Positions 7,528 through 47,430 of a stretch of 64,000 nucleotides of DNA are shown one piece after another. The stretch's first letter is position 1. Each line of letters opens with the position of its first letter. The notes beneath the pieces were generated by a model. The model was not told where the DNA came from, ran no database searches, and worked only from the letters and a program-made list of their open reading frames with translations. The position numbers were made by a program, and so were the translations under genes. The stretch comes from a virus. Location: IMG/VR virus record IMGVR_UViG_3300045988_183134, positions 1-64,000 of that record; one strand, 5' to 3'.

Positions 7528-7593
7528 GAAAAATATAAGCCAAAAATATATCTTATCGTTGTCCCGCATGAGTTGATTGTGCGGGACTTTTTT
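7528..7593 (+). terminator. promoter-proximal leader ending in an intrinsic terminator (not homologous to the cassette family)
   Basis: GTCCCGCA..TGCGGGAC hairpin at 7561-7587 followed by TTTTTT, between the promoter and the RBS of 7616. Confidence 0.6.
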
Positions 7594-7615
7594 GTTTGCG
7601 GAAAGGAAATGCACT

Positions 7616-30523: not shown

Positions 30524-30616
30524 GTAAAGTGTGAACAGATACTAAGCAATCAGTAGGATTCACAATCTGTATTTTAAGCGGACTTATCCCATAGCGGGGT
30601 AGGTCCGCTTTTTTTG
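30524..30616 (+). ncRNA. structured RNA cassette, family member
   Basis: GTGAACAGATACTA box, TGTGAA/TTCACA helix, ATTCACAATCTG box, terminator AAGCGGACTT..AGGTCCGCTT followed by T7. Confidence 0.6.
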
Positions 30617-30634
30617 TTGAAAGGAGAAGAATTC

Positions 30635-31795
30635 ATGAAAATCAAAAACAAGCTTTTACGGAGTACAGCGGCAATCATCGCTGCGCTCTTTGCACTCAGC
30701 TTCACCGGCTGCGGTCAGAATCCGATAATATCGGAAAGTCCATCCAGTATCGGGGTCGTCTCAGAAAGCACTGTGAGCAGTGACCAGACGGCTGGCGGTT
30801 CGGTGGACGGCAGCTTTACCATTCATTTTATAGACGTAGGGCAGGCGGATTCCGCTCTTGTTACCTGCGACGGCCACTCAATGCTCATTGATGGCGGCAA
30901 TGTCGATGATTCTAACCTCTTATATTCTGTTATGCAGCGTGAAACCGATGGGCACCTGGATTATGTCGTTGGGACTCACGCGCACGAAGACCACATCGGC
31001 GGCTTGTCCGGTGCTTTTGAGGCCGTCACTGCGAACATGACTCTATGCCCTGTGACAGAATACGACAGCAAAGCATTTCGGGACTTTGCAAGCTACGCGG
31101 AGCAAAAAGGCGGAGGCATCACGATACCGGATGTGGGTGAAACCTACACTCTGGGGGAAGCGGAATTCACGATAGTTGGTGTTAATTCTGTTCCCAATGA
31201 CACGAACAATACTTCGATTGTTTTGCGTATTGTCTATGGAGACACCTCGTTCCTCTTTACCGGAGATGCGGAACAGGAAGCGGAAAACGTGATACTTGCA
31301 TCGGGACAAGACATTCAGTCAACAGTTCTGAAAGTAGGGCATCATGGCTCAAGTACATCTACCTCAGAGGCTTTTCTGGATGCGGTAAATCCAACATATG
31401 CTGTGATTTCTTGTGGCACAGGGAACAGTTACGGTCATCCACATCAGGAAACACTCGACAAGTTGCAAAACAAAGGTGTCGAGGTTTATCGCACAGACCT
31501 GCTGGGTGATATTTACTGCACCTCGGATGGCAAAGAGGTAAGTTTCACTTCCGGTGAATATCATGATGAAAATCGGATTGAAGCCGGTAGTGCTGCAGAT
31601 TCCAAGGATGAACAGGACAAAGCTTCACTTGTCATAGACGAGACATACGTTCTGAACACGAGCACTATGAAGTTTCACAAACCCGATTGCTCTGCAGTCG
31701 AATCGATGAGTCAAAAGAATCGAATCGACTATATGGGGCCCCGCGATGAGCTCATCCAGGAAGGGTATTCGGCGTGTGGGATTTGCAAACCATAA
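30635..31795 (+). CDS. MBL-fold (ComEC/Rec2 C-terminal-like) hydrolase lipoprotein with a Cys-rich tail
   Basis: lipobox LSFTGC; HFIDVGQADS, DGG, GTHAHEDHIGG, TGD, VGHHGS motifs; C-terminal HKPDC..C.IC. Confidence 0.85.
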   Translation: MKIKNKLLRSTAAIIAALFALSFTGCGQNPIISESPSSIGVVSESTVSSDQTAGGSVDGSFTIHFIDVGQADSALVTCDGHSMLIDGGNVDDSNLLYSVMQRETDGHLDYVVGTHAHEDHIGGLSGAFEAVTANMTLCPVTEYDSKAFRDFASYAEQKGGGITIPDVGETYTLGEAEFTIVGVNSVPNDTNNTSIVLRIVYGDTSFLFTGDAEQEAENVILASGQDIQSTVLKVGHHGSSTSTSEAFLDAVNPTYAVISCGTGNSYGHPHQETLDKLQNKGVEVYRTDLLGDIYCTSDGKEVSFTSGEYHDENRIEAGSAADSKDEQDKASLVIDETYVLNTSTMKFHKPDCSAVESMSQKNRIDYMGPRDELIQEGYSACGICKP

Positions 31796-33444: not shown

Positions 33445-34185
33445 ATGCGTATTTATAGCGCAAACAACGTATTCATAGAAGTTACGCGCCGGTGCAATAT
33501 GTGCTGTGCGCACTGCCTGCGCGGAGATGCCGAAAGCATCGATATTCAGGAGAAGTACATCGATGCTTTTCTCGACAGCTTTGAGAAGGGAGCTTATATC
33601 AGCTCTCTTACCTTTACCGGTGGGGAAATCTCTCTGAATATACCGGCAATTCGATACACCTTGAAAGCTGTCAAAGAGCGCGGTATCGCCGTTGGAAGCT
33701 TTTACATGGTCACTAACGGAAAAGCTGTCGATAAGATGGCTGACCTTGCTATGGCGAGTCTGGAGTGGTGGGCCTACTGCGATGAAAAAGATGACTATAT
33801 GTGCGGTCTTTGCATCAGCAGTGATAACTTCCACGAAGTAATCCCATATGAAAGTAAAAGTATCCTTAGTGGCTTGAAATATAACCGTAACGATAAGGTA
33901 ACGGACTTTCATCTGGCTTATTTACTGAACGAAGGGCGTGCTAAGAATCTCGATTCGAATATCTATAAGAAGCGTGAACCTCATGTAGACAAGCTCGAAT
34001 ACGAATTCAACAAAACCGGCGATATCGACTTTTACAGCGGCGAGCTGTACTTGAACGCCATCGGTGATGTCGTTTCCGGCTGCGATTGGTCCTACAAGTC
34101 GCAGAAGAAATATCGTTTTGGTAATGTAATGAACAAAAACTGGCTGGAGAACATTTCCAACAGCGAGTTGTACATTGCAAGCTAA
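33445..34185 (+). CDS. small radical SAM enzyme with a truncated SPASM/twitch-like tail
   Basis: CNMCCAHC fits CX3CX2C; FTGGE SAM motif; C-terminal GDVVSGCDWSY..FGNV. Confidence 0.8.
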   Translation: MRIYSANNVFIEVTRRCNMCCAHCLRGDAESIDIQEKYIDAFLDSFEKGAYISSLTFTGGEISLNIPAIRYTLKAVKERGIAVGSFYMVTNGKAVDKMADLAMASLEWWAYCDEKDDYMCGLCISSDNFHEVIPYESKSILSGLKYNRNDKVTDFHLAYLLNEGRAKNLDSNIYKKREPHVDKLEYEFNKTGDIDFYSGELYLNAIGDVVSGCDWSYKSQKKYRFGNVMNKNWLENISNSELYIAS

Positions 34186-35689: not shown

Positions 35690-35810
35690 TACTCCTAGAA
35701 CGAAACTTTGATTCGGGTTCTTTCAGCAAAAAGCGTAGGAACCAAAATCATACGAAATGATTGTGTTGACACATAAAAACAAGTATAATATATGCAAGGA
35801 AGTGATAATA

Positions 35811-36263
35811 ATGGTTCTGTATCATGGCAGCGATGTAATAGTCCGCAACCCTGAGGTCAGAAAAACAAGGTACGCCAAAGATTTTTCATGGGGATTCTAT
35901 TGCACTAGCAACTACGAACAAGCCGCTCGCTGGTCAAAAAAAGGCAGGTCTCGTGGTATTGTCAACGTGTTTGAATATACAGAATCTCCCATGCTAAATA
36001 TTAAGAAATTCCCCGAAATGAGTGATGAGTGGCTTGATTTTATTGCTATATGTCGCTCGGGCAAACATCATGACTATGATATTGTGGAAGGACCCATGGC
36101 GGATGACACCATTTGGAACTACGTCAACGACTTTCTAAGCGGTGATATTAGCCGTGAAGCTTTTTGGGCGTTGGCAAAATTCAAGCATCCCACGCATCAA
36201 ATCAGCTTTCACACGGAAGTCGCTTTGAAATGTCTCTCTTTTAAGGAGGCGATTGAAGTATGA
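35811..36263 (+). CDS. DUF3990-like protein (ADP-ribosyltransferase-fold candidate)
   Basis: LYHGS..V..P.......DFSWGFY.T....A..W .. DIVEGPMADD pattern recalled for DUF3990. Confidence 0.65.
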   Translation: MVLYHGSDVIVRNPEVRKTRYAKDFSWGFYCTSNYEQAARWSKKGRSRGIVNVFEYTESPMLNIKKFPEMSDEWLDFIAICRSGKHHDYDIVEGPMADDTIWNYVNDFLSGDISREAFWALAKFKHPTHQISFHTEVALKCLSFKEAIEV

Positions 36264-36807: not shown

Positions 36808-36835
36808 TTGTGCATCTGTGCGAATTGCATATAAT
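36808..36835 (+). promoter_or_regulatory. dyad-box promoter, family copy
   Basis: TTGTGC atct GTGCGAA ttgca TATAAT. Confidence 0.65.
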
Positions 36836-36947
36836 ACAAAATATAGAACGAAAGGCATCAAAAAACATCGTTGGTCGGGCAAAATCCGACCGAAAGGCTA
36901 GGGCGGGCTCAGTTTTGAACCTGCTCTTTCTTTTTATCGGAGGCTTT

Positions 36948-37475
36948 ATGTCAAACAAAGAAGAACGCATGAACCGCAATAAAAGCATCATCGAAGATTA
37001 CAAAAATAGAAAGCCGATTTTAGAAATCGCGAGGGAATATAATCTTTCAGAAACGATGTGCTACAAGATTCTAAAAGGTACGCAGGAGCCGCCTCGTTAT
37101 TTTGAAAAAAAGAGGAAGAGACTTACCACTCGAAATGAGCAAATTGTTAAACAGTATAAAGGCGGTATGACGGCCAGAGAATTGGGCAAGATGTACGGCA
37201 TTTCCATGCAGCGTATTTATGCAATCTTGCATTCGAGCGGAGAGTACGAAAGCCAAAAATACAATCATATTGAAACGGCTCTCAAAAAAGAGAAAAAGAT
37301 GCGGAACCAAACTTTTCTTGATGCTTACAAGAAAAATCCTCGAAAATCGATTATCGAGTTGAGCAGGGAGGTAAATATCAGCCCTTCACTAGGTTACCTT
37401 ATCCTTCATCAAAATGGGATTTACCAGTATAACGTAAAAGCCAGAGCTAAGGAGAATAGCGAAAATGCCGATTAA
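36948..37475 (+). CDS. tandem-HTH protein (3 repeats)
   Basis: GGAGG RBS; repeats ILEIAREYNLSETMCYKIL, ARELGKMYGISMQRIYAIL, IIELSREVNISPSLGYLIL. Confidence 0.7.
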   Translation: MSNKEERMNRNKSIIEDYKNRKPILEIAREYNLSETMCYKILKGTQEPPRYFEKKRKRLTTRNEQIVKQYKGGMTARELGKMYGISMQRIYAILHSSGEYESQKYNHIETALKKEKKMRNQTFLDAYKKNPRKSIIELSREVNISPSLGYLILHQNGIYQYNVKARAKENSENAD

Positions 37476-37983
37476 CAAGATTACCCACGTGTGTCTAACT
37501 CATGACAAAGTCAGGGCACGAAATGAAAAGATGCTGGAGGATGCCAAGAACGGTATGTCCCAGGAACAGCTGGCCGAAAAGTATCAAATCTGTGTTTCTA
37601 CTGTCCGATATAGTCTGAAGGACTTTTACGAAGAACAGGCCCGGCAGAGAAAAGCAAAGAAGAAAGCCTGGCAAACCCAGATGATTCATGAATATGAGAT
37701 GGGCGCAAAATCTCCGGAGCTTCAGGAAAAATACGGCATCAGTGGAACGCTCTTTTATCGGATTCTTCATGCGCACGGAAAGAATGGCCGACAAATCCAC
37801 AGCCAAAACCGTATCGAGACCGGCAAGAAAAGAAACGCCGAGATGGTCAGGAAATACAAGAACGGCGTTTCTGTCAAAGAGCTTGCGGAAGAATACGGGC
37901 TCAAAAAGGGAAGCGTATATCGCGCCATGAAGCGGTATAGTCCAGGCCCAGGGGAAAGTAAAAGTTGTCAAAGTGAGGAATAA
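37465..37983 (+). CDS. tandem-HTH protein (3 repeats)
   Basis: AAGGAG RBS; repeats QEQLAEKYQICVSTVRYSL, SPELQEKYGISGTLFYRIL, VKELAEEYGLKKGSVYRAM. Confidence 0.7.
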   Translation: MPINKITHVCLTHDKVRARNEKMLEDAKNGMSQEQLAEKYQICVSTVRYSLKDFYEEQARQRKAKKKAWQTQMIHEYEMGAKSPELQEKYGISGTLFYRILHAHGKNGRQIHSQNRIETGKKRNAEMVRKYKNGVSVKELAEEYGLKKGSVYRAMKRYSPGPGESKSCQSEE

Positions 37984-37987
37984 TTGC

Positions 37988-38941
37988 ATGGCTGCATCAA
38001 AGAAAGATGTTGCGAAGCAGCAGGTCAAAGAAGACCGCGAAAAGGTTCGGGAAATGTATCTTTCTGGCAAAACTGTCAAGGAAATCGCCAAGGAAACGTA
38101 TTTTTCAAGCTCTTATTGCTATGCCATGGTGAGAGACCTAGCAAAAGAAAAGAATCTTGCAAAGAAAGCAAAAAGAGCACCTCTCAACGAAGCTATGATT
38201 CAAGATGCGAAAGCCGGGATGACGGTTGCTGAAATCGCAAAGAAGCATGGCGTGACTTATCAGCAGTGCTACTATACTGTTTCTGAATACGCTCAAGCTA
38301 CGATTAAGAAGAACAAGAAAAAGCAGTCTGCTGCCACGAAAGTTCGCAATGCGGCTATGTTGGAAGATGCGAAAGCCGGAATGACTGATAAGGAAATCGC
38401 CAAAAAATACTTTTTGTCTCGAAGCAGTGTCCGTACCGTCCTTGCAGGGCATTTACATACAAATTCCAAAAAGTTGGATGAAAGGCGCAAGGCGATTCTT
38501 GCGGATTATGAGGCAGGAACGTCCTCAAAAGACATCTGTGAGAAATACGGTATTTCAAAATCCACTCTTTACAAGGACATGCGCCAAGTTGAAAAAACCT
38601 GTCAGGAATACTATCACAAGGCGCTGAAAGACAAGACCAATCAAAGGAATTCCGATATTCGAAGCAAAATCGAAAGAGGGGTCTCGGTCAGCACTATTGC
38701 CAAGGAATACGGAATCTCTAAAACGGCGATTTATGAAACGTTTCATCAGGAAAATGTCAGAGCTGGAATTTTACAGAAACGCGGCCGTCCGCGAAAAAAC
38801 ACGGAACGTAATGCACTGATTGCTAAACGCCACAGGGAAGGCGAGAAGGTGCAGGCGCTTGCCACTGAATATAATCTCTCTGTTTCGACGGTAAACACTA
38901 TTTGCAGTAGAAACAAAAATCAGAATATAACCTCATATTAA
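37988..38941 (+). CDS. tandem-HTH protein (6 repeats)
   Basis: GAGGAA RBS; six units of about 50 aa, e.g. VKEIAKETYFSSSYCYAMV and VSTIAKEYGISKTAIYETF. Confidence 0.7.
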   Translation: MAASKKDVAKQQVKEDREKVREMYLSGKTVKEIAKETYFSSSYCYAMVRDLAKEKNLAKKAKRAPLNEAMIQDAKAGMTVAEIAKKHGVTYQQCYYTVSEYAQATIKKNKKKQSAATKVRNAAMLEDAKAGMTDKEIAKKYFLSRSSVRTVLAGHLHTNSKKLDERRKAILADYEAGTSSKDICEKYGISKSTLYKDMRQVEKTCQEYYHKALKDKTNQRNSDIRSKIERGVSVSTIAKEYGISKTAIYETFHQENVRAGILQKRGRPRKNTERNALIAKRHREGEKVQALATEYNLSVSTVNTICSRNKNQNITSY

Positions 38942-38986: not shown

Positions 38987-39901
38987 ATGACAGACGACGT
39001 ACGTAATTTAATTCGATTTGTGGTGGATGGCGATATTCGTAACGCGCAGACTCAGTGCCGAATCATGCTTGAAAAGAATGTACCCGAAAAGGACGCCAGG
39101 TTCAAAGAAAACGAACTCAGAAAGTTGAATCTTCTGAAACCGGAACTGATTCAGCTGCCCGCCAACCTGGAAAACCTCTTGATTGCGGAGGATGCCACGA
39201 ATTTCCCTGAGAGCCGGTTCCTGCTCCGCGAGGAGGAAGAAACAGTCATCAACAAGCTCTTGGCCACCAGAAAAGCAGCTTTAGCCATCAAGGAGCTTGG
39301 CATCCACTATACTTGCTCTTTGCTTTTGACGGGCCTTCCTGGTGTTGGTAAGACTGAATTGGCCCGCTACATTGCACACAAGGCAAATTTACCGTTTGTT
39401 TTCCTGAAATTTTCTGGCCTTGTCAATTCTGCTCTTGGCCGGACACAGCAGAACATCGGCAGAGTGTTCGATTACGCAAAGCGCACGCCCTGCGTTCTTT
39501 GTGTTGATGAAATTGATGCTATCGGAATGTGCCGTGGCGGCCGTGATGACGTCGCTGAAATGAGCCGCGTCACCATCGCATTGATGCAGGAACTTGACCG
39601 GCTCCCGAATGACGTCATTCTCATTGGCACTACAAACCGCGTCGATAACCTTGACGAAGCCCTCATTCGCCGATTCACTTTCAAACACCGCGTCAAGCCT
39701 TTAGGCGACGATGACATGAAAGAACTGTGCAAAAAGTTCCTTGCTTCGGCAGACTATCCCTTCACGGAATCCGAACTCGACGAACTCTGCCATTCGCTGC
39801 GTGAACAGCGGACGGCCAGCGCCGTTGTCAATGCCTGTACAGAACGTATCGTTGCACATATCGTATCGCAGCTGCCTGAAAATTCGACAGATGCCGTGTA
39901 A
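38987..39901 (+). CDS. classical AAA+ ATPase
   Basis: GLPGVGKTELA Walker A, VLCVDEIDA Walker B, GTTNR sensor-1, EALIRRF arginine-finger region. Confidence 0.85.
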   Translation: MTDDVRNLIRFVVDGDIRNAQTQCRIMLEKNVPEKDARFKENELRKLNLLKPELIQLPANLENLLIAEDATNFPESRFLLREEEETVINKLLATRKAALAIKELGIHYTCSLLLTGLPGVGKTELARYIAHKANLPFVFLKFSGLVNSALGRTQQNIGRVFDYAKRTPCVLCVDEIDAIGMCRGGRDDVAEMSRVTIALMQELDRLPNDVILIGTTNRVDNLDEALIRRFTFKHRVKPLGDDDMKELCKKFLASADYPFTESELDELCHSLREQRTASAVVNACTERIVAHIVSQLPENSTDAV

Positions 39902-41032: not shown

Positions 41033-41509
41033 ATGAAGCACAAAATCTCGGAAACCGGCGCTCGGATGCTTAAATATCAAGAGCAGCTTGCCCGCGAATA
41101 CAAATACAAGCCTATTCCGCGTACCTTTTTCAAGGATGTGCGAGCAGAGTTCAAAGAAGCTCTGCCAGAATGGTGCAACGTATCCGGTGGTACGACCAAA
41201 CTCGAAACCAGTAACGGCACAGTCATTACCAGCGGGTACAACCGTATCGTGATTGGCGACTACGGCGCATTCGTTGAGTTTTCGCGTGCCCAAGCAAATG
41301 CACGTCATTTGAAAATCAAAGAGGGGCAGAGCTATCGTATCGAAGACCCGCGCTATGCTGAGCACGTCAAGTATCTTTGGCTCACGGCGGACGATGACTC
41401 AGACGTGAAAGTATACGACCAAAAGCGCTCGGTTGAGTACGCTGACTACAAGCCGGGGATGCTGTATGTCAGCGTGTACGAGGTGTTTCCGGCAGAAGAA
41501 GGTCACTGA
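41033..41509 (+). CDS. hypothetical protein
   Basis: 158-aa ORF from the ATG at 41033. Confidence 0.6.
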   Translation: MKHKISETGARMLKYQEQLAREYKYKPIPRTFFKDVRAEFKEALPEWCNVSGGTTKLETSNGTVITSGYNRIVIGDYGAFVEFSRAQANARHLKIKEGQSYRIEDPRYAEHVKYLWLTADDDSDVKVYDQKRSVEYADYKPGMLYVSVYEVFPAEEGH

Positions 41510-41657
41510 AAAGAAAGCCGAACCACGGGACGAATGGGGACAGGGTGATTCCATTGCCGACCTGTACGCGAAAAGTGGCGCTGTGGTTTCCATGGTAGGT
41601 TCGGCTAAAGATTTGCTGACTTCCCTGCAATCTGCCGGAACCACAAGACATTTGTGA
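41466..41657 (+). CDS. +1-frame overlapping small ORF
   Basis: 63 aa, GGGGA 8 nt upstream; the tail EWGQGDSIADLYAKSGAVVSMVGSAKDLL looks protein-like. Confidence 0.35.
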   Translation: MSACTRCFRQKKVTEKKAEPRDEWGQGDSIADLYAKSGAVVSMVGSAKDLLTSLQSAGTTRHL

Positions 41658-41736
41658 TGCGCTTGCCTCAACCACAAGATATAGTGGTATCTTAATGTTT
41701 GTTTACAATTTAGACACTATATATTGTGTCTTTTCA

Positions 41737-41765
41737 TTGACCGGATACCACATATATGGTATAAT
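41737..41765 (+). promoter_or_regulatory. strong sigma-A consensus promoter of the tRNA array
   Basis: TTGACC-17 nt-TATAAT with TGn extended -10; no GTGCGAA box. Confidence 0.7.
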
Positions 41766-42011
41766 ACAATTGTTCTCAGGAAGAGGAACGGCTCCTGAGA
41801 CATCAAGGTTTTCCTTTCCCCAATCTTGGTCGCATGGCTTCATTTGAGCTGACACAGGTGAAGCGTGAAAATCATCCGTTTCATAGTAATATCCTTCCTT
41901 TCTTTGGCGTGGGTAACTCCGCGCCAGCCGTCCAAGTAAACAGCCTCCACGCGGCGGACGGTGGACAACAGATGTTTCCGTGTTCCGGGCATCTGGCTAA
42001 TGTTTGTATTT
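41766..42011 (+). ncRNA. structured leader of the tRNA operon
   Basis: hairpins CTCAGGA..TCCTGAG, GCTTCA..TGAAGC and CCGTCC..GGACGG; no ORF. Confidence 0.35.
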
Positions 42012-42087
42012 GCTGGTTTAGCTCAGCTGGTAGAGCAACTGATTTGTAATCAGTCGGTCATCGGTTCAAGTCCGATTTCCAGCTCCA
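42012..42087 (+). tRNA. tRNA-Thr(TGT)
   Basis: hand-folded cloverleaf, loop TTTGTAA, CCA encoded; U.U mismatches at 6-67 and 7-66. Confidence 0.75.
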
Positions 42088-42560
42088 GACGCTATCCGTT
42101 GGATGTATCGAAATCACATGATACGATGCTATACACAACATCTGGCGGACAGCATGCCACCCATTAAGGCGGCCTCCTCGTGGCGGGTGGCGGACAGCGG
42201 CTCTTGCGGCTGCTGACGAATGTCTTAGAAGCATGCAAACGTACGAGCATCCCCGTCAAGTCGGGGCGCATCCAGACGCGACACAGCCGTAAAGGCGAGA
42301 TTGCTGCACGGCAACTGGTAAGTTTCGCCGCAGTCTCACACACAGCCCAACGACAACCGTTAACCCGATTTGACAGGGAATCAACGACAGGGCTCAAAAT
42401 TTGAAGTTGACCAACACCCAAGCGCTTTCTTGGATTCTCGCGTATCGTCAACGATGAGGTTCGCAAGATTGTCAGGTGGTGTGAAGATGACATCCGGGGA
42501 TGACGACCTACTAAACGGATGTCATGGCGGGGCTAAGTGAGGGTTCACCCGCAATCTTAT
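42088..42560 (+). ncRNA. 473-nt ORF-free structured spacer; candidate large ncRNA
   Basis: 10-bp stem ATGACATCCG..CGGATGTCAT, CCCCG-TCAAGT-CGGGG, several GNRA-type loops; only short, unsupported ORF-track entries (42164-42493 on the - strand, 42180-42404 on +). Confidence 0.35.
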
Positions 42561-42635
42561 GCAGGTATCGTATAACGGCTAATACTCCGCCCCTCCAAGG
42601 CGGAGACGCGGGTTCGACCCCCGCTACTTGCTCCA
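42561..42635 (+). tRNA. tRNA-Gly(TCC) with C33
   Basis: perfect CCGCC/GGCGG anticodon stem, loop CCTCCAA; D-arm TCGTATAACGGCTAATAC resembles Gly-UCC; discriminator U; CCA encoded. Confidence 0.75.
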
Positions 42636-42907
42636 CACGTCGCAGTCACCGTACGCCACGACGTTAAACTTGGTGAGCATGGTCCACTTGTGGTCCGCTG
42701 TCCGAATGTCGATGAGACAGCCTCAAAAATAATAGACAAACAGGTGCTGTGCCTGAAAGTATTCGAAAGTCCCGGTGTTAGTCGCGAATAAGACCGGAAA
42801 ACGGTGAATAGGGTACAATACAGAATCTATCGGCGTGGCTGCCGAATGGTGCTGGATGCGAGTTGGCTTCTCGCTCAAGGGGTGACCAGCATAAAACACC
42901 CTATCGT
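42636..42907 (+). ncRNA. 272-nt ORF-free spacer
   Basis: no credible ORF; GC-rich inverted repeats. Confidence 0.25.
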
Positions 42908-42983
42908 GCTCGATTAGCTCAGTTGGTAGAGCAGCGCATTCGTAACGCGCAGGTCGGCAGTTCGAACCTGCCATCAAGCCCCA
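42908..42983 (+). tRNA. tRNA-Thr(CGT)
   Basis: cloverleaf, loop TTCGTAA, anticodon arm GCGCATTCGTAACGCGC; one C.A acceptor mismatch; CCA encoded. Confidence 0.8.
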
Positions 42984-43021
42984 TTACCCAATGAAGCGAC
43001 AATAGAAAGGAGATGAAACTT

Positions 43022-43405
43022 ATGGAACAGGCAATTATCAATGTTGAAGGTACGACTACCATTGAAACCGCTGCAGCGGCAAAAAAGCTGATTGAAATGT
43101 TTGGCAATCAGAACGTCCGCGCCATCGCTGTCAACCGTGTAAACGACAAGAGCGACGAGGTCATTGTTGAACTCGATTTCGTTCCCGGTTTGGCACCGCA
43201 TCTGCACGGCTTCACGCTTCAGGTTAATGGCTTGACCTGTGGTTATGCTGGTACTGGTCCTTCCAATCTGTATGAAGTCCTGCAGGCGGCTGGCGTGAGT
43301 GAAGCTCAGGTAGCACGCGAGGACATCACTCAGAAGAGCACAAAAACCATTCCTCTGCGCCTGGAACGCGCCGTGACTCAGTACGGCGACTTCCAGTTTG
43401 CGTAA
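43022..43405 (+). CDS. hypothetical protein embedded in the tRNA array
   Basis: ATG 10 nt after GGAG (the track start at 43013 is too close to the RBS); 127 aa. Confidence 0.6.
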   Translation: MEQAIINVEGTTTIETAAAAKKLIEMFGNQNVRAIAVNRVNDKSDEVIVELDFVPGLAPHLHGFTLQVNGLTCGYAGTGPSNLYEVLQAAGVSEAQVAREDITQKSTKTIPLRLERAVTQYGDFQFA

Positions 43406-43435
43406 CGCTATTTGGCGGGCTTGACCCGCCATCAT

Positions 43436-43511
43436 GGAGGGATAGCTTAGCTGGATAAAGCACCTGCCGCAAAGCAGGGTATCGATGGTTCGAGGCCATC
43501 TCCCTTCTCCA
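43436..43511 (+). tRNA. tRNA-Cys(GCA)-like with a 6-nt anticodon loop
   Basis: good acceptor, D and T arms; CCTGC/GCAGG stem encloses CGCAAA (no U33); CCA encoded. Confidence 0.55.
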
Positions 43512-43870
43512 TCCAGACACCCTTTCGCTTCCTTTCGCCAAAGGTATCTGGGGTATTGTACTGCATTGCGTGTAGTACGGCCAATCAGGCGCGGAACTCC
43601 GAAACCATACCACGAAGAATTTTATCCTCTCCGCGCAGCATGGACATGCGATTTTACGGGGATAAATTCAAACCGAAATTGTGTCGAGTGGCGAAGACGG
43701 TTGCGACACTGGCGAAGCACATATCTGCTTCGTCAACCATCCATGAGAAAGCCTCCACGTGGCAGATGGTGGGCAACGCAGCAAAGCTGCGGCTGATTTC
43801 TTTCAAACCGGTATCTGAATAAATGCAGATAAATAGACGAAAAAATCAAAAAAGCAAAGGAGTACACAGC
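43512..43870 (+). ncRNA. 359-nt ORF-poor spacer
   Basis: no RBS-supported ORF between the tRNA and 43871. Confidence 0.25.
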
Positions 43871-45004
43871 ATGAGTAATCAGAAAATCATCAAAGCAATC
43901 GCAGGGATTGCAGCAGCCGGTATGATGGCAACTTGTCTGCCTGTCGCAGCATTCGCAGCCACCGGCGACACCTATCATTTCTCTTTCAGCAACGGTTCTT
44001 CCCAGGACCTGGCTCCGGGCGGCTCTATGACGTTCCCGGCAAGCCAGTATGACTACGGTTACTGGATTACCCTGCAGGGCCACGGCGGCTACACCTACAA
44101 CTACTATCCCGGCGACACTCTGCCGTACGATGCAGTTGACCAGTGGTTCACCGCTGACGGCATCACTTCCTGCTATGCGGCCGAAGGTAATCCGCGTTCC
44201 ATCACCATCAACTATCAGATTGACGGCAACACTGTGCTGACCGAAACTGACACCGCCACTTTCCCCGGCAGCGTTGATGGTCAGAGCGTTGAAGCCTGGA
44301 CCACGGATTCCGGTGATACTTACACCGCATCCAGCAAGAGCCTGAACCATGACCGCCTGTTCTACTACCTGGGCGACGACATCCACGACAATGTCCTGAC
44401 CCTGAAAGCCACTTCTGCATCCACTCCCGATGACGGCAAGGATGACAACAAGGGCGATGACAAGGGCGATGTCACCAACCCCGACGATAAGGGCGACAAC
44501 AAGGGCGACAATACCGGCGACAGCGGCACCACCACTCCCGATGACAAGGGCGACGTAGTGGCCCCCGATAAGGACAACACCGGTAAGGACAACACTTCTA
44601 CCGGCTCCAACAAGGGCAACGGTACTACCACCACTACTCCGACCGCTCCTCGCAAGAACGTTGAAGTCTCTGAGCACGGTGAAATTGCCGCCGCTATTGC
44701 CAATGGCACCTGGGGCAATGAGTACACCGTCTGCACCAGCTGTGGCTATCACAACTGGACCCGCAAGGGTAACGTTTACGTCTGTGACCATTGTGGTCAT
44801 GAAGTTCTGACTGTTAAGGGCGCTGATGGCGTCAAGGGCTATGCTGGCACTCTGGCTGGCAACGAGCCCCAGTACGCTTCTACCTCTGAAGCTCAGGCTG
44901 CTGCTGAAAAGCGTGAAGCCGCTTATGCCGCTTCCATCGCTGCTTTGCAGGCACAGGTTGCCGCTCGTGAAGCTGCTTATGCTGCTTCCCTGGGCATCCA
45001 CTAA
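43871..45004 (+). CDS. secreted GC-rich protein with (D/N)KGD repeats and a C-terminal Cys4 motif
   Basis: AAAGGAG RBS; signal peptide ..ATCLPVAAFAATG; DDKGDNKGDNTGD repeats; CTSCG..VCDHCGH; the antisense ORF 43733-45001 is a shadow. Confidence 0.8.
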   Translation: MSNQKIIKAIAGIAAAGMMATCLPVAAFAATGDTYHFSFSNGSSQDLAPGGSMTFPASQYDYGYWITLQGHGGYTYNYYPGDTLPYDAVDQWFTADGITSCYAAEGNPRSITINYQIDGNTVLTETDTATFPGSVDGQSVEAWTTDSGDTYTASSKSLNHDRLFYYLGDDIHDNVLTLKATSASTPDDGKDDNKGDDKGDVTNPDDKGDNKGDNTGDSGTTTPDDKGDVVAPDKDNTGKDNTSTGSNKGNGTTTTTPTAPRKNVEVSEHGEIAAAIANGTWGNEYTVCTSCGYHNWTRKGNVYVCDHCGHEVLTVKGADGVKGYAGTLAGNEPQYASTSEAQAAAEKREAAYAASIAALQAQVAAREAAYAASLGIH

Positions 45005-45041
45005 TTTGCCATCCTCTAACTAACGGTAATCGATAGTTATT

Positions 45042-45115
45042 CGAGGATTCGCCAAACGGTAAGGCATCAGGCTTTGACCCTGACAACGGTTGTTCGACTC
45101 GACCATTCTCGGCCA
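45042..45115 (+). tRNA. tRNA-Gln(TTG)
   Basis: cloverleaf, loop CTTTGAC, D-arm GCCAAACGGTAAGGC; CCA encoded. Confidence 0.8.
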
Positions 45116-45195
45116 ACGCTCACTTTCATGCGCATCGGAAGTGAGATTCCTCAAAGCTGTGTTCCCATAAGCAAGGCACGGAAGATGCGCGACAA

Positions 45196-45271
45196 GTGCT
45201 CGTAACTCAATCGGTAGAGTACCCGACTTTTAATCGGGGTGTTCGGGATTCGATTTCCCGCGAGCGCACCA
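45196..45271 (+). tRNA. tRNA-Lys(TTT)
   Basis: cloverleaf, loop CTTTTAA; CCA encoded. Confidence 0.85.
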
Positions 45272-45302
45272 TGCCCGGCAGAGCATTATCTGCCACTTTT
45301 GT

Positions 45303-45378
45303 GGGTGTATAGCTCAGTAGGCAGAGCGGCGGACCGTTAATCCGTTTGTCGCAGGTTCAAATCCTGCTACGCCCGCCA
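45303..45378 (+). tRNA. tRNA-Asn(GTT) with C33
   Basis: cloverleaf, loop CCGTTAA; CCA encoded. Confidence 0.8.
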
Positions 45379-45381
45379 TAA

Positions 45382-45459
45382 GCTCCTCTGGTGAAATTGG
45401 CAGACACAGTGCGCTCAAACCGCACCGTTTTGAGGGTTCGAATCCCTCGGGGAGTACCA
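45382..45459 (+). tRNA. tRNA with CAA (Leu) anticodon and Leu-type D-arm but no long variable arm
   Basis: perfect GTGCG/CGCAC stem, loop CTCAAAC; D-arm TGGTGAAATTGGCAGACAC; 6-nt variable region; A73; CCA encoded. Confidence 0.6.
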
Positions 45460-45488
45460 TGTCCGGCAGTACAACAACTGCCATTTAT

Positions 45489-45564
45489 GGGTTGTTAGCT
45501 CAGCTGGTAGAGCAACGGACCGTTAATCCGTGGGCCGCAGGTTCAAACCCTGTACAACCCGCCA
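45489..45564 (+). tRNA. tRNA-Asn(GTT) with C33, second copy
   Basis: cloverleaf, loop CCGTTAA; CCA encoded. Confidence 0.8.
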
Positions 45565-45567
45565 TAT

Positions 45568-45642
45568 GCTCCAGTGGCGAAACTGGCAAACGCGGCGGCT
45601 TTATGTCCCGTTTTACTCTGGGTTCGACTCCCAGCTGGAGTA
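45568..45642 (+). tRNA. tRNA with TAT (Ile, AUA) anticodon on the same Leu-like scaffold
   Basis: loop TTTATGT, stem has a C.C at 31-39; D-arm TGGCGAAACTGGCAAACGC; A73; no encoded CCA. Confidence 0.5.
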
Positions 45643-45649
45643 TCTATAT

Positions 45650-45725
45650 AGGGGTGTAGCTCAAGTGGTAGAGCAGCGGTCTCCAAAACCGCTTGTTGCA
45701 TGTTCGAGTCGTGTTACCCCTGCCA
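45650..45725 (+). tRNA. tRNA-Trp(CCA)
   Basis: AGGGG 5' end, loop CTCCAAA; CCA encoded. Confidence 0.85.
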
Positions 45726-45735
45726 CAATAAGAAA

Positions 45736-45764
45736 AGCCGTCCTCACATAAGAGGCGGCTTTTT
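45736..45764 (+). terminator. intrinsic terminator after the first tRNA block
   Basis: AGCCGTCCTC..GAGGCGGCT hairpin followed by TTTTT. Confidence 0.65.
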
Positions 45765-45807
45765 GTTTTGGAGAGTATACAGACCAAAAAACTAAACCAC
45801 AAGTTGA

Positions 45808-45835
45808 TTGCAGATGTGCAAAAACATGGTATAAT
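45808..45835 (+). promoter_or_regulatory. promoter related to the dyad-box family (shifted box)
   Basis: TTGCAG at GTGCAAA aacatgg TATAAT. Confidence 0.45.
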
Positions 45836-45869
45836 AATATCAGAACGAAACGAAAGGAGATACCCCAAA

Positions 45870-46010
45870 ATGCTGTGCAACACTGTTAATGTCATGTCGT
45901 ATGAGTATAGTTACGAATATTCTGAGTTCATGTCCTTTGAACGCAGTTTTATTTCTCATACTCCTCGACAGGCAAAAACAGACCATGTACAGATGCGGTG
46001 CGTCTTCTAA
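45870..46010 (+). CDS. 46-aa hypothetical peptide
   Basis: AAAGGAG RBS 8 nt upstream of the ATG at 45870. Confidence 0.4.
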   Translation: MLCNTVNVMSYEYSYEYSEFMSFERSFISHTPRQAKTDHVQMRCVF

Positions 46011-46028
46011 GCGATAACTGCATGTCAT

Positions 46029-46064
46029 AGCTGCTTGTCGAGATTTCGGCAGGCAGCTTTTTTG
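46029..46064 (+). terminator. intrinsic terminator
   Basis: AGCTGC..GCAGCT hairpin followed by TTTTTT. Confidence 0.6.
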
Positions 46065-46095
46065 TTGCCTGCAATACAGAAAGGCAGCAAGAAAA

Positions 46096-46317
46096 ATGAA
46101 CGTTCCTACTATTGATATCCAGCAGACAGGTGCCAATATCAAGGCCCTGCGAAAGGCAGCAGGCATCAAGGTGAAGGATGTGGCAGACATGCTCGGTGTA
46201 TCTCCGCAGGCGGTTGCTAAATGGCAAGCCGGAACAGCGCTTCCCACCATCGATAACCTTGTGATATTAGCAGCAATGCTCGATACGAAAATTGATGACA
46301 TCCTTGTCATCGCATAA
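46096..46317 (+). CDS. XRE/Cro-type HTH regulator
   Basis: 73 aa; IKALRKAAGIKVKDVADMLGVSPQAVAKWQAG..P.....ILA.ML. Confidence 0.8.
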   Translation: MNVPTIDIQQTGANIKALRKAAGIKVKDVADMLGVSPQAVAKWQAGTALPTIDNLVILAAMLDTKIDDILVIA

Positions 46318-46346
46318 ACCCTCGCCGCAGGATTGCGGCTATATAT

Positions 46347-46426
46347 GGCCCGTTGGACGAATTGGTAGAGTTGCCGCCCTTTCACGGCGGAGGTTATTGT
46401 GGGTTCGAAACCCACACGGGTCACCA
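46347..46426 (+). tRNA. tRNA-Glu(TTC), atypical D-arm and 8-nt variable loop
   Basis: acceptor GGCCCGT/ACGGGTC-A and arm CCGCCCTTTCACGGCGG match bacterial tRNA-Glu; CCA encoded. Confidence 0.7.
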
Positions 46427-46427
46427 T

Positions 46428-46503
46428 GCTTCTGTAGCTCAACAGGTAGAGCAGTGGTCTGAAGAGCCACGTGCAGCTGGTTCGAATCCAGCCGGAAGCA
46501 CCA
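46428..46503 (+). tRNA. tRNA-Phe(GAA)
   Basis: cloverleaf, loop CTGAAGA; CCA encoded. Confidence 0.85.
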
Positions 46504-46527
46504 TCGAGGTTTTATACCTCATTCTAT

Positions 46528-46612
46528 GTGTCGGTATGCAAGTGGTTAAAGCAAACGGTCTGTAAAACCGCTCCGTTACGGTTCACTGGTTCGAATCCAG
46601 TCCGACACACCA
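46528..46612 (+). tRNA. tRNA-Tyr(GTA), class II
   Basis: loop CTGTAAA, variable arm CCG-TTA-CGG; CCA encoded. Confidence 0.85.
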
Positions 46613-46615
46613 TAA

Positions 46616-46689
46616 GGCCCCTTCGACAAGTTGGTCTAAGTCGCCAGCCTCTCAAGCTGGAGTCGGCAGTTCGAGTCTGCCAGGGGTCA
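46616..46689 (+). tRNA. tRNA-Glu(CTC)
   Basis: perfect CCAGC/GCTGG stem, loop CTCTCAA; Glu-like acceptor GGCCCCT/AGGGGTC-A; no encoded CCA. Confidence 0.7.
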
Positions 46690-46725
46690 TACAAGCACCT
46701 ATGTTATGTCAAAAAGGTGCATTAT

Positions 46726-46815
46726 GCAGAGGTCGCCTAACGGTAGGGCAGCAGCTTGCTAAGCTGCCGTCGCGGAAATCGCGGCATGTGAGTTCGAATC
46801 TCACCCTCTGCGCCA
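46726..46815 (+). tRNA. tRNA-Ser(GCT), class II
   Basis: loop TTGCTAA, long variable arm CGCGG-AAAT-CGCGG, G73; CCA encoded. Confidence 0.8.
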
Positions 46816-46818
46816 TCT

Positions 46819-46906
46819 GCTTGCTTGTTCGAGTGGTTGATGAAATCGGTCCAGAAAACCGACGATGGGAGACTGTCCGAAGGTTCGAATCCTTCAGCAA
46901 GCGCCA
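46819..46906 (+). tRNA. class II Ser-like tRNA with loop CCAGAAA (anticodon AGA, C33)
   Basis: perfect acceptor GCTTGCT/AGCAAGC, TCGGT/ACCGA stem, long variable arm, G73; CCA encoded. Confidence 0.55.
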
Positions 46907-47265
46907 CTGCCCTCATTCTGTGCGGTATCCGTGCAGGTGAGGGCTTTTTCTTTTGCTTTTCGCTTCGAATTTCGGACTCGAATGGCGTTAATGGTCGGAT
47001 ATTCTTGATTATACATGCCTTTGCTGTATGGCAAATAGCTCCAAACAGTATTGGTTTTTACACCCAATTCTTCTGCAATTTCAGGAACTGACATACCGTT
47101 CGCACGCAGCTTCCCGATTTTTTCTGATGTTTCATCTGACCATGCCCCGGCTGTAATCAGTATTTTGCGCACTTTCTGCAATGAGATGCCTGCACGTTTG
47201 GCAATGGTTCTTCTAGGTATACCTTGCTCATGGAGCCGGAGAACCGTCTGCATTGTCGCGTCCAT
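46894..47265 (-). CDS. tandem-HTH protein (2 repeats), minus strand
   Basis: IPRRTIAKRAGISLQKVRKIL and SVPEIAEELGVKTNTVWSYL; the C-terminal tail runs through the terminator and 13 nt of the tRNA. Confidence 0.65.
   Translation of the reverse strand: MDATMQTVLRLHEQGIPRRTIAKRAGISLQKVRKILITAGAWSDETSEKIGKLRANGMSVPEIAEELGVKTNTVWSYLPYSKGMYNQEYPTINAIRVRNSKRKAKEKALTCTDTAQNEGSGAC
46909..46949. terminator. terminator at the end of the tRNA array, shared with the convergent gene
   Basis: GCCCTCA..TGAGGGC hairpin followed by TTTTT. Confidence 0.65.
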
Positions 47266-47430
47266 TTGTCAGTACCTCGCCGTTATCGATTTTTGTATTG
47301 CCCTAATTGTTGTACTTTAATCATACAGCAAAGCAACAAAATTGTCCAGGAAGCAAAAGTGCCTTCATTTGCCACTGATTCATCTATTGCAAAAGAATGT
47401 GTATAAACTGTTACCATTTAACGCTTTCCG

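Follow-up and report, generated by a model that had tools for sequence, protein, structure and literature searches.

HDV-like ribozymes and candidate structured RNAs interleaved with tRNAs in a putative gut phage operon

The first 64,000 nucleotides of the IMG/VR virus record IMGVR_UViG_3300045988_183134 (hereafter the window) are phage DNA that encodes helicases, an HNH endonuclease, a tail lysozyme and 17 tRNA genes, the first four of which are separated by long stretches without a conserved reading frame. We find that these stretches hold three ribozymes resembling that of hepatitis delta virus (HDV-like; Rz1 to Rz3) and three folded, conserved RNA elements (E2 to E4), so that the region looks like one transcript cut into pieces. 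Judged by sequence and predicted fold, Rz1 to Rz3 are new members of a known HDV-like family, for which self-cleavage is predicted, and E2 to E4 are candidate new RNA classes when set against Rfam. An earlier note on this DNA, made from the letters alone, had proposed large structured RNAs of the GOLLD or ROOL classes here and had missed the ribozymes. The six elements, with their matches to the Rfam family RF02682 where they have one, are the following.

41927-42007, plus strand: Rz1, RF02682 at 47.9 bits (E 3.2e-7), passing the gathering score of 44
42156-42227, plus strand: Rz2, RF02682 at 34.1 bits (E 5e-4), under the gathering score of 44
42228-42343, plus strand: 5' module of E2, 86-90% conserved among divergent relatives, with a few relatives lacking it or carrying a replacement
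42344-42560, plus strand: core of E2, 217 nt, predicted structured RNA with no Rfam match, holding a 10-bp stem singled out in the earlier note
42636-42907, plus strand: E3, 272 nt, occupying the entire gap between tRNA-Gly and tRNA-Thr(CGU)
43512-43735, plus strand: E4, 224 nt, between an aberrant tRNA and Rz3, its terminal hairpin ending 1 nt before the predicted Rz3 cleavage site
43736-43803, plus strand: Rz3, RF02682 at 40.7 bits (E 1.5e-5), under the gathering score of 44

Aligned to RF02682, all three ribozyme copies show a 7-bp P1, a P3 of GCC/GGC enclosed by P1, an L3 loop of UCCNCGN, a 2-bp P1.1 in which the CC of L3 pairs with the GG following P1, a P4 hairpin and the catalytic cytosine of J4/2 (in GGCUAA, GGCUGA or ACGAA), and the sequence of each lets J1/2 pair with the 3' tail as P2. 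The P4 stems of the window copies are 5-6 bp long, with an L4 of up to ~14 nt in Rz1. Cleavage is predicted at 41926/41927 in Rz1, whose P1 (GCCGTCC/GGACGGT) has a G:U pair at its base and whose 3' end lies 4 nt before tRNA-Thr(UGU); at 42155/42156 in Rz2, with P1 GCCACCC/GGGTGGC and J4/2 ACGAA; and at 43735/43736 in Rz3, with P1 ACCATCC/AGATGGT, ~67 nt upstream of the next open reading frame (ORF). The uppermost P1 pair of the window's Rz3 is a C:A mismatch; in relatives this pair is C-G or U-A. A CCGTCC/GGACGG stem already remarked on in the earlier note (41928 and 41956) is in fact P1 of Rz1. Within the 64-kb window there are three exact copies of the core GCCTCCNCGNGGC, against ~0.03 expected, all on the plus strand and each inside one of Rz1 to Rz3. 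A covariance model, R1, which was built from 11 ribozyme copies (alignment A1) and does not include P2, finds exactly three copies in the window, scoring Rz1 at 71.2 bits, and 314 among 100 related loci; in relatives a single locus holds as many as 5-6 copies. A weak R1 match on the minus strand at 7529-7602 (13.9 bits, E 0.08), with several broken pairs, is probably due to chance.

We assembled more than 150 related loci from IMG/VR through two flanking proteins, and more through DNA patterns in viral and metagenome contigs. The relatives' contigs reach 389 kb, many are labelled human gut, and the metagenomic copies number in the hundreds; most relatives are 94-99% identical, several types only 60-85%. 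The order Rz-E2-tRNA-Gly-E3-tRNA-Thr-ORF-tRNA(Ala or aberrant)-E4-Rz is kept in every sequence type, with E2 ranging over 333-462 nt, E3 over 272-729 nt and E4 over 224-231 nt. No near match was found among 50,697 GenBank phage records, where a distant search matched tRNAs only, and no bacterial genome was found to carry the elements. A 20-mer of E3 recurs in 11 places in unrelated high-GC genomes; because the alignment extends over only ~25-45 nt, we reject these as prophage or bacterial copies and take them as chance matches. A metagenome scan found no more divergent homologues of E4: 96 of its 120 matches were real, and all belonged to the same four types.

Across these relatives the ribozyme folds covary. 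In the 47 distinct sequences among the best 150 matches, compensatory changes affect six of the seven P1 pairs, all seven of P2, one of three in P3 and all three in P4, while P1.1 is invariantly C-G and the catalytic C column does not vary. None of 500 shuffles matched these counts, under a control that takes no account of relatedness among the sequences (as in the shuffles below), and slid controls collapse. Since P2 was absent from the search model, its covariation is an independent check. In one relative a ribozyme directly after tRNA-Gly (L107:6986-7056) has two P1 mismatches (ATCCCTA/AAGGAAT) and AG in place of GG at P1.1, and is possibly decaying; its counterpart in L138 has one P1 mismatch (G:A, the top pair) and keeps the GG.

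E2 to E4 are conserved and covary as well, as comparison with related phage regions, a check proposed in the earlier note, bears out. E2 (42228-42560) starts right after Rz2 and stops 8 nt short of tRNA-Gly, and its core is present in every sequence type, always 8-10 nt upstream of tRNA-Gly(UCC); E3 likewise always lies 5-7 nt upstream of tRNA-Thr(CGU). In 50-nt bins among divergent relatives, parts of the spacers reach a conservation of 0.86-0.91 against 0.69-0.84 for the neighbouring 130-aa gene, so that E2 to E4 are conserved as well as that gene or better. For the E2 core (alignment A2) RNAalifold gives 51 pairs, of which 19 show compensatory change, against 3-7 in slid controls; E3 (alignment A4) has 65 predicted pairs with 17 compensatory, and E4 (alignment A5) 53 with 17, against 0-3 in slid controls for both, and in each case none of 500 shuffles reached the count. 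Minimum free energy z-scores are modest (-0.7 to -2.7), and the real support for the folds is comparative. G:U pairs far outnumber A:C pairs (79:5 in E2, 122:15 in E3, 56:4 in E4), which fits RNA read from the plus strand, although the count leans towards that strand to some degree, as the structures were predicted on it.

All the stems listed in the earlier note are present. The 10-bp stem, which it had placed at 42488-42535, pairs ATGACATCCG at 42487-42496 with CGGATGTCAT at 42516-42525, so those coordinates were approximate; it is conserved, covaries and forms helix 5 of the E2 fold. CCCCG at 42251 and CGGGG at 42262 make a hairpin within E2. The invariant E2 block GGGGCU...AGGGUUCACCC served as our own search pattern, so its invariance is by construction. 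In the hairpin closed by the 10-bp stem, a conserved loop of 19 nt (42497-42515) reads ...GACUACCUCCUAAA in several types and ACCUAC in the window type. The ACCUCCU of these loop variants bears an apparent resemblance to the anti-Shine-Dalgarno end of 16S rRNA, and GGGGAUGACG and CAUCAUGGC near the loop may also resemble a 16S segment. The 3' domain of E2 has a stem with GG after it, a CCUCC loop and GGCUAA; it was considered as a degenerate HDV fold and rejected by inspection, its topology being different. The 3' end of E3 probably forms an H-type pseudoknot of S1 (GUGCUGG/CCAGCAU, 42848-42854/42887-42893) and S2 (GGGGUG/CACCCU, 42880-42885/42898-42903), with two compensatory variants in S1 and one in S2 among 66 sequences. 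Neither in the window nor in the related loci checked does any of E2 to E4 match Rfam. Paralogy among E2, E3, E4 and the leader of the transcript was rejected, the only similarities being chance matches of 7-13 nt, and each element is single-copy in the window.

The spacers had been described as free of ORFs, which holds in that no frame is conserved, whereas mechanical ORFs do exist (109 aa at 42164-42493 on the minus strand, 103 aa at 43485-43796 on the plus strand). Stop-free frames run for 74 codons through E4 and, on the minus strand, for 101 in E2, which could be taken to mean that the spacers encode small proteins; alternatively the spacers might be conserved for a signal at the level of DNA, for instance as an origin, as a recombination site or for a binding array. 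We regard both ideas as highly improbable. Of the alignment indels in E2 to E4, 84-97% have lengths not divisible by three, and in E4 the stop-free frame shifts phase between sequence types; on these grounds we reject coding. Against either idea stand the pairwise compensatory substitutions, with G:U tolerated on the plus strand only. Nor were direct-repeat arrays seen by eye, no formal scan having been made. The GOLLD or ROOL identity does not hold. A search of the 2.2-kb region against Rfam, with ARAGORN for tmRNA, gave no GOLLD, ROOL, HEARO, raiA, tmRNA or intron match, either at the gathering score or at E<=10, and all of these are rejected; six related loci gave no GOLLD or ROOL match either. 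In the 2.2-kb region it was RF02682 that matched instead, three times. What survives of the original proposal is that the spacers are candidate structured RNAs: non-coding, behind a strong promoter together with tRNAs, conserved and covarying. The 820-nt block 42088-42907, which had been read as a single RNA with tRNA-Gly nested inside, is really an HDV-like ribozyme, E2, tRNA-Gly and E3. A single very large RNA of the GOLLD or ROOL class would suit the setting near a phage tRNA island, and GOLLD can hold tRNAs in a linker (PMC12286853), but with no family match, and with the parts lost, swapped or occurring separately in natural variants, membership is refuted and we give such an RNA next to no credence. 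Two divergent relatives (L140 and L148, 2423-2736) have, upstream of the 167-aa gene, a HEARO (IscB omega-RNA) match that at 51.7 bits (E 1.2e-7) stays below the gathering score of 83; the window gave none.

The remaining features of the putative transcription unit are these.

41737-41765, plus strand: sigma-70-type promoter, TTGACC-17-TATAAT with an extended -10 TG, 11/12 positions, start predicted at ~41772
41772-41926, plus strand: predicted 5' leader, ~155 nt, conserved in close relatives only
42012-42087, plus strand: tRNA-Thr(UGU), CCA encoded
42088-42155, plus strand: tRNA trailer, 68 nt, which would be cut off by Rz2
42561-42635, plus strand: tRNA-Gly(UCC), CCA encoded
42908-42983, plus strand: tRNA-Thr(CGU), CCA encoded
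43013-43405, plus strand: 130-aa conserved ORF (127 aa if read from the second Met) that has a ribosome-binding site and belongs to no known family
43436-43511, plus strand: tRNA of aberrant form, its anticodon loop 6 nt long (CGCAAA) and its acceptor stem lacking G3:U70
43804-45004, plus strand: 5' untranslated region (43804-43870, GGAG before ATG) and ORF of 377 aa

The promoter is thus where it had been proposed, and the tRNAs lie exactly where the four ORF-poor stretches implied. It is the best-scoring site within 41400-47400, with a terminator-like hairpin directly upstream (41712-41731), and we found no strong intrinsic terminator between it and 46029-46058. The spacers had also been called GC-rich; at 48-54% they lie slightly above the window (47%), but they are no richer than the neighbouring ORFs (50-56%).

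We consider it fairly probable that RNase P, tRNA 3' processing and the ribozymes together divide a single precursor into tRNAs, three non-coding RNAs and mRNAs. Co-transcription, actual cleavage and the release of E2 to E4 as stable RNAs are what we infer from the arrangement. The region would then be the promoter-proximal part of a phage operon, transcribed from 41737-41765 as one long precursor in which RNase P would cut the 5' end of each tRNA and host nucleases would trim each 3' end. Each HDV-like ribozyme would cut at its own 5' edge, leaving a 2',3'-cyclic phosphate upstream and a 5'-OH downstream. The expected products would be four tRNAs, an Rz2-E2 RNA of ~405 nt, E3 of ~272 nt, E4 of ~224 nt and two mRNAs, the second of which, for the 377-aa ORF, would begin with the Rz3 fold and a 5'-OH. 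The boundaries of the parts are consistent with such a scheme: the last part of the leader is the hairpin GGCGTGGGTAACTCCGCGCC, which a single A separates from the predicted Rz1 cleavage site, the terminal hairpin of E4 likewise ends 1 nt before a ribozyme cleavage site, and E3 abuts tRNAs on both sides. The trailer before Rz2 is 68 nt in most relatives and 188-190 nt in some. ARAGORN assigns a 2-base "anticodon" to the tRNA at 43436-43511, a form that is fixed in more than 100 close relatives; divergent relatives have a canonical tRNA-Ala(UGC) in its place. This tRNA may be kept mainly as a processing signal.

Natural variants alter this block in several ways. In L103 (5960-6075; window 41969/43731) Rz1 and Rz3 have recombined within their conserved cores, which has removed the whole E2-E4 block and left a chimeric ribozyme whose P2 no longer pairs, and L096 (5880-5960; window 41868/43527) is a further deletion variant. 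In L048 (1560-1640; window 42228/42775) the end of Rz2 is joined to the middle of E3 at a TTAG microhomology, so that the segment 42228-42775 is missing, and in L114, L180 and L138 it is the 5' part of E2 that differs. The ribozyme copies appear to act as recombination substrates.

Tentatively, and at less than even confidence, we suggest that E2 to E4 are three undescribed classes of large structured phage RNA that would receive exact ends from dual punctuation by tRNAs and ribozymes and act in trans during infection, the tRNAs and ribozymes serving partly as processing signals, of which the degenerate tRNA at 43436-43511 would be an example. The trans action is a guess by analogy with other phage RNAs associated with tRNA islands; possible roles would include RNA-only assemblies, protein sponges, and decoys against defences that target tRNAs or translation. 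A number of observations weigh against the processing scheme. The relatives form one lineage of ~4-7 sequence types, so the covariation rests on few independent events; Rz2 and Rz3 score 34.1 and 40.7 bits against the gathering score of 44, and P1 of the window's Rz3 holds a C:A mismatch; all four tRNAs encode CCA, and the manner in which their 3' ends are cut is assumed. The whole block is absent from some relatives (L096, L103), from which it follows that it is dispensable and accessory.

Because E2 always accompanies tRNA-Gly and E3 always tRNA-Thr, the main rival explanation is that these elements act in cis. E2, E3 and perhaps E4 would then be leaders or trailers that control the folding of tRNA-Gly(UCC) and tRNA-Thr(CGU), their access to RNase P, their stability or the timing of their maturation, and would be degraded afterwards. 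The fixed spacings of 8-10 nt and 5-7 nt in every type favour this reading, as does the L048 deletion, which keeps the 3' half of E3 with its pseudoknot attached to tRNA-Thr. However, folds of 220-330 nt far exceed the needs of known bacterial tRNA leaders, E4 does not precede a tRNA in the window, where it lies between a tRNA 3' end and a ribozyme, and the window's other 13 tRNAs have short spacers; we hold cis control to be possible but rather unlikely. Very unlikely, in our estimate, is that E2 or E3 is itself a new self-cleaving or processing ribozyme that would cut on its own 3' side and, in concert with the HDV-like ribozymes, free the tRNAs without host nucleases. Both elements end a few nucleotides before tRNA 5' ends, are predicted to be pseudoknotted, contain invariant blocks and occupy the slot that HDV-like ribozymes hold upstream of other tRNAs in relatives, but no known self-cleaving class was matched at E<=10 and, RNase P being universal, there is no evident need for a new ribozyme to excise tRNAs.

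Around the block, the 130-aa, 377-aa and 167-aa ORFs have no match in Pfam or PHROGs, and the first two none in NCBIfam; the AlphaFold model of the 130-aa protein, at a pLDDT of 44.6, is too poor for a fold search. At ~45005-45041, between the 377-aa ORF and tRNA-Gln, most relatives (L001 and others) carry ~1.3 kb of extra sequence, including a tRNA-Ser(UGA), that the window lacks, and in divergent types another HDV-like ribozyme lies 7-9 nt upstream of this tRNA. At 45042-46906 follow 13 further tRNAs in a second cluster, which has short spacers and lacks ribozymes and is split by a segment (45726-46346) that holds an 80-aa ORF, the strong terminator at 46029-46058 and a 73-aa helix-turn-helix gene of the Cro/CI type. 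Further upstream, three consecutive genes at 36810-38941 encode proteins of repeated helix-turn-helix modules (Mor, HTH_23 or HTH_28-like), followed by an AAA ATPase at 38987-39901. Also upstream of the tRNA operon are a ComEC-like nuclease of the metallo-beta-lactamase fold (30614-31795), a small radical-SAM protein (33445-34185) and a DUF3990 protein (35757-36263), among which no RNA-processing enzyme is evident; the first of them was considered as a phage RNase Z and rejected as ComEC-like.

Our findings suggest that an abundant lineage of human-gut phages uses the HDV-like family in its own way, with ribozymes placed before tRNAs, in the middle of spacers and before an mRNA, and bracketing three conserved RNAs of 220-330 nt with predicted pseudoknots that no Rfam family explains. 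If the processing scheme is correct, the region would represent a natural design for making several exact RNAs from one transcript without dedicated nucleases, and the few large RNAs of unknown function known from bacteria and phages would gain three candidates. E2 to E4 are small enough for chemical probing or cryo-EM, and their predicted ends can be checked in gut metatranscriptomes.

Among known systems, the closest are the HDV-like ribozymes (drz; RF02682 is the "HDV ribozyme from F. prausnitzii"), with which Rz1 to Rz3 share the nested double pseudoknot of P1, P1.1, P2, P3 and P4, the L3 motif UCCNCG, the J4/2 cytosine and a predicted cleavage site at the 5' edge of P1. The founding F. 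prausnitzii ribozyme lies upstream of the chromosomal gene glmM; here, in contrast, three copies fall within 1.9 kb of a phage tRNA operon. To our knowledge, few biological roles of HDV-like ribozymes have been described, and their sole described link to phage tRNAs is the trimming of 3' trailers by theta ribozymes. These are minimal HDV-like ribozymes of gut Caudoviricetes, captured by an RNArobo descriptor with short L4 and J1/2 and proposed to process phage tRNA transcripts by trailer trimming; they count as tRNA-associated when they cleave no more than 5 nt to either side of a tRNA 3' end, and their adjacent tRNAs encode CCA in 4.5% of cases (Kienbeck et al. 2024, PMC10879173). The ribozymes described here are likewise HDV-like, from gut phage and associated with tRNAs, and in a few relatives they share the theta position, those at L107:6986 and L138:1267 beginning 1-2 nt past the end of tRNA-Gly. 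In the window, Rz1 has no tRNA upstream, and the predicted cuts of Rz2 and Rz3 fall 68 nt past tRNA-Thr and 224 nt past the aberrant tRNA, respectively, so that none has the theta layout; moreover, the window copies have full P4 stems, the adjacent tRNAs all encode CCA and there is no suppressor tRNA. Our own descriptor scan over all loci gave 166 unique cases of ribozyme plus context, of which 9 show the theta layout and 37 a ribozyme ending 0-20 nt upstream of a tRNA, the rest being mid-spacer. The commonest tRNA-proximal layout in this lineage is thus the reverse of theta, and together with the positions in the window these counts indicate that the family is known and its use here is different from that described for published theta ribozymes. 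The sequences of Rz1 to Rz3 are absent from those supplementary files of the theta paper that were examined (PMC10879173).

GOLLD and ROOL are large structured phage RNAs of unknown function that sit beside tRNA islands, and many GOLLD members exceed 800 nt (PMC12286853). The present elements share with them a location near phage tRNAs, 17 of which lie in the window, and differ in being three distinct RNAs of 224-333 nt, each bounded by tRNAs or ribozymes. ROOL RNAs, for their part, measure ~580 nt. Non-tRNA RNAs co-transcribed with tRNAs or tRNA-like elements, with ends set by tRNA-processing enzymes, are familiar from the stable RNAs "species 1 and 2" of the phage T4 tRNA cluster, from tRNA punctuation in mitochondria and from MALAT1-mascRNA. 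The arrangement described here resembles these systems in principle and differs in that its ribozymes would add a punctuation free of enzymes and that its RNAs are larger and, by prediction, pseudoknotted.

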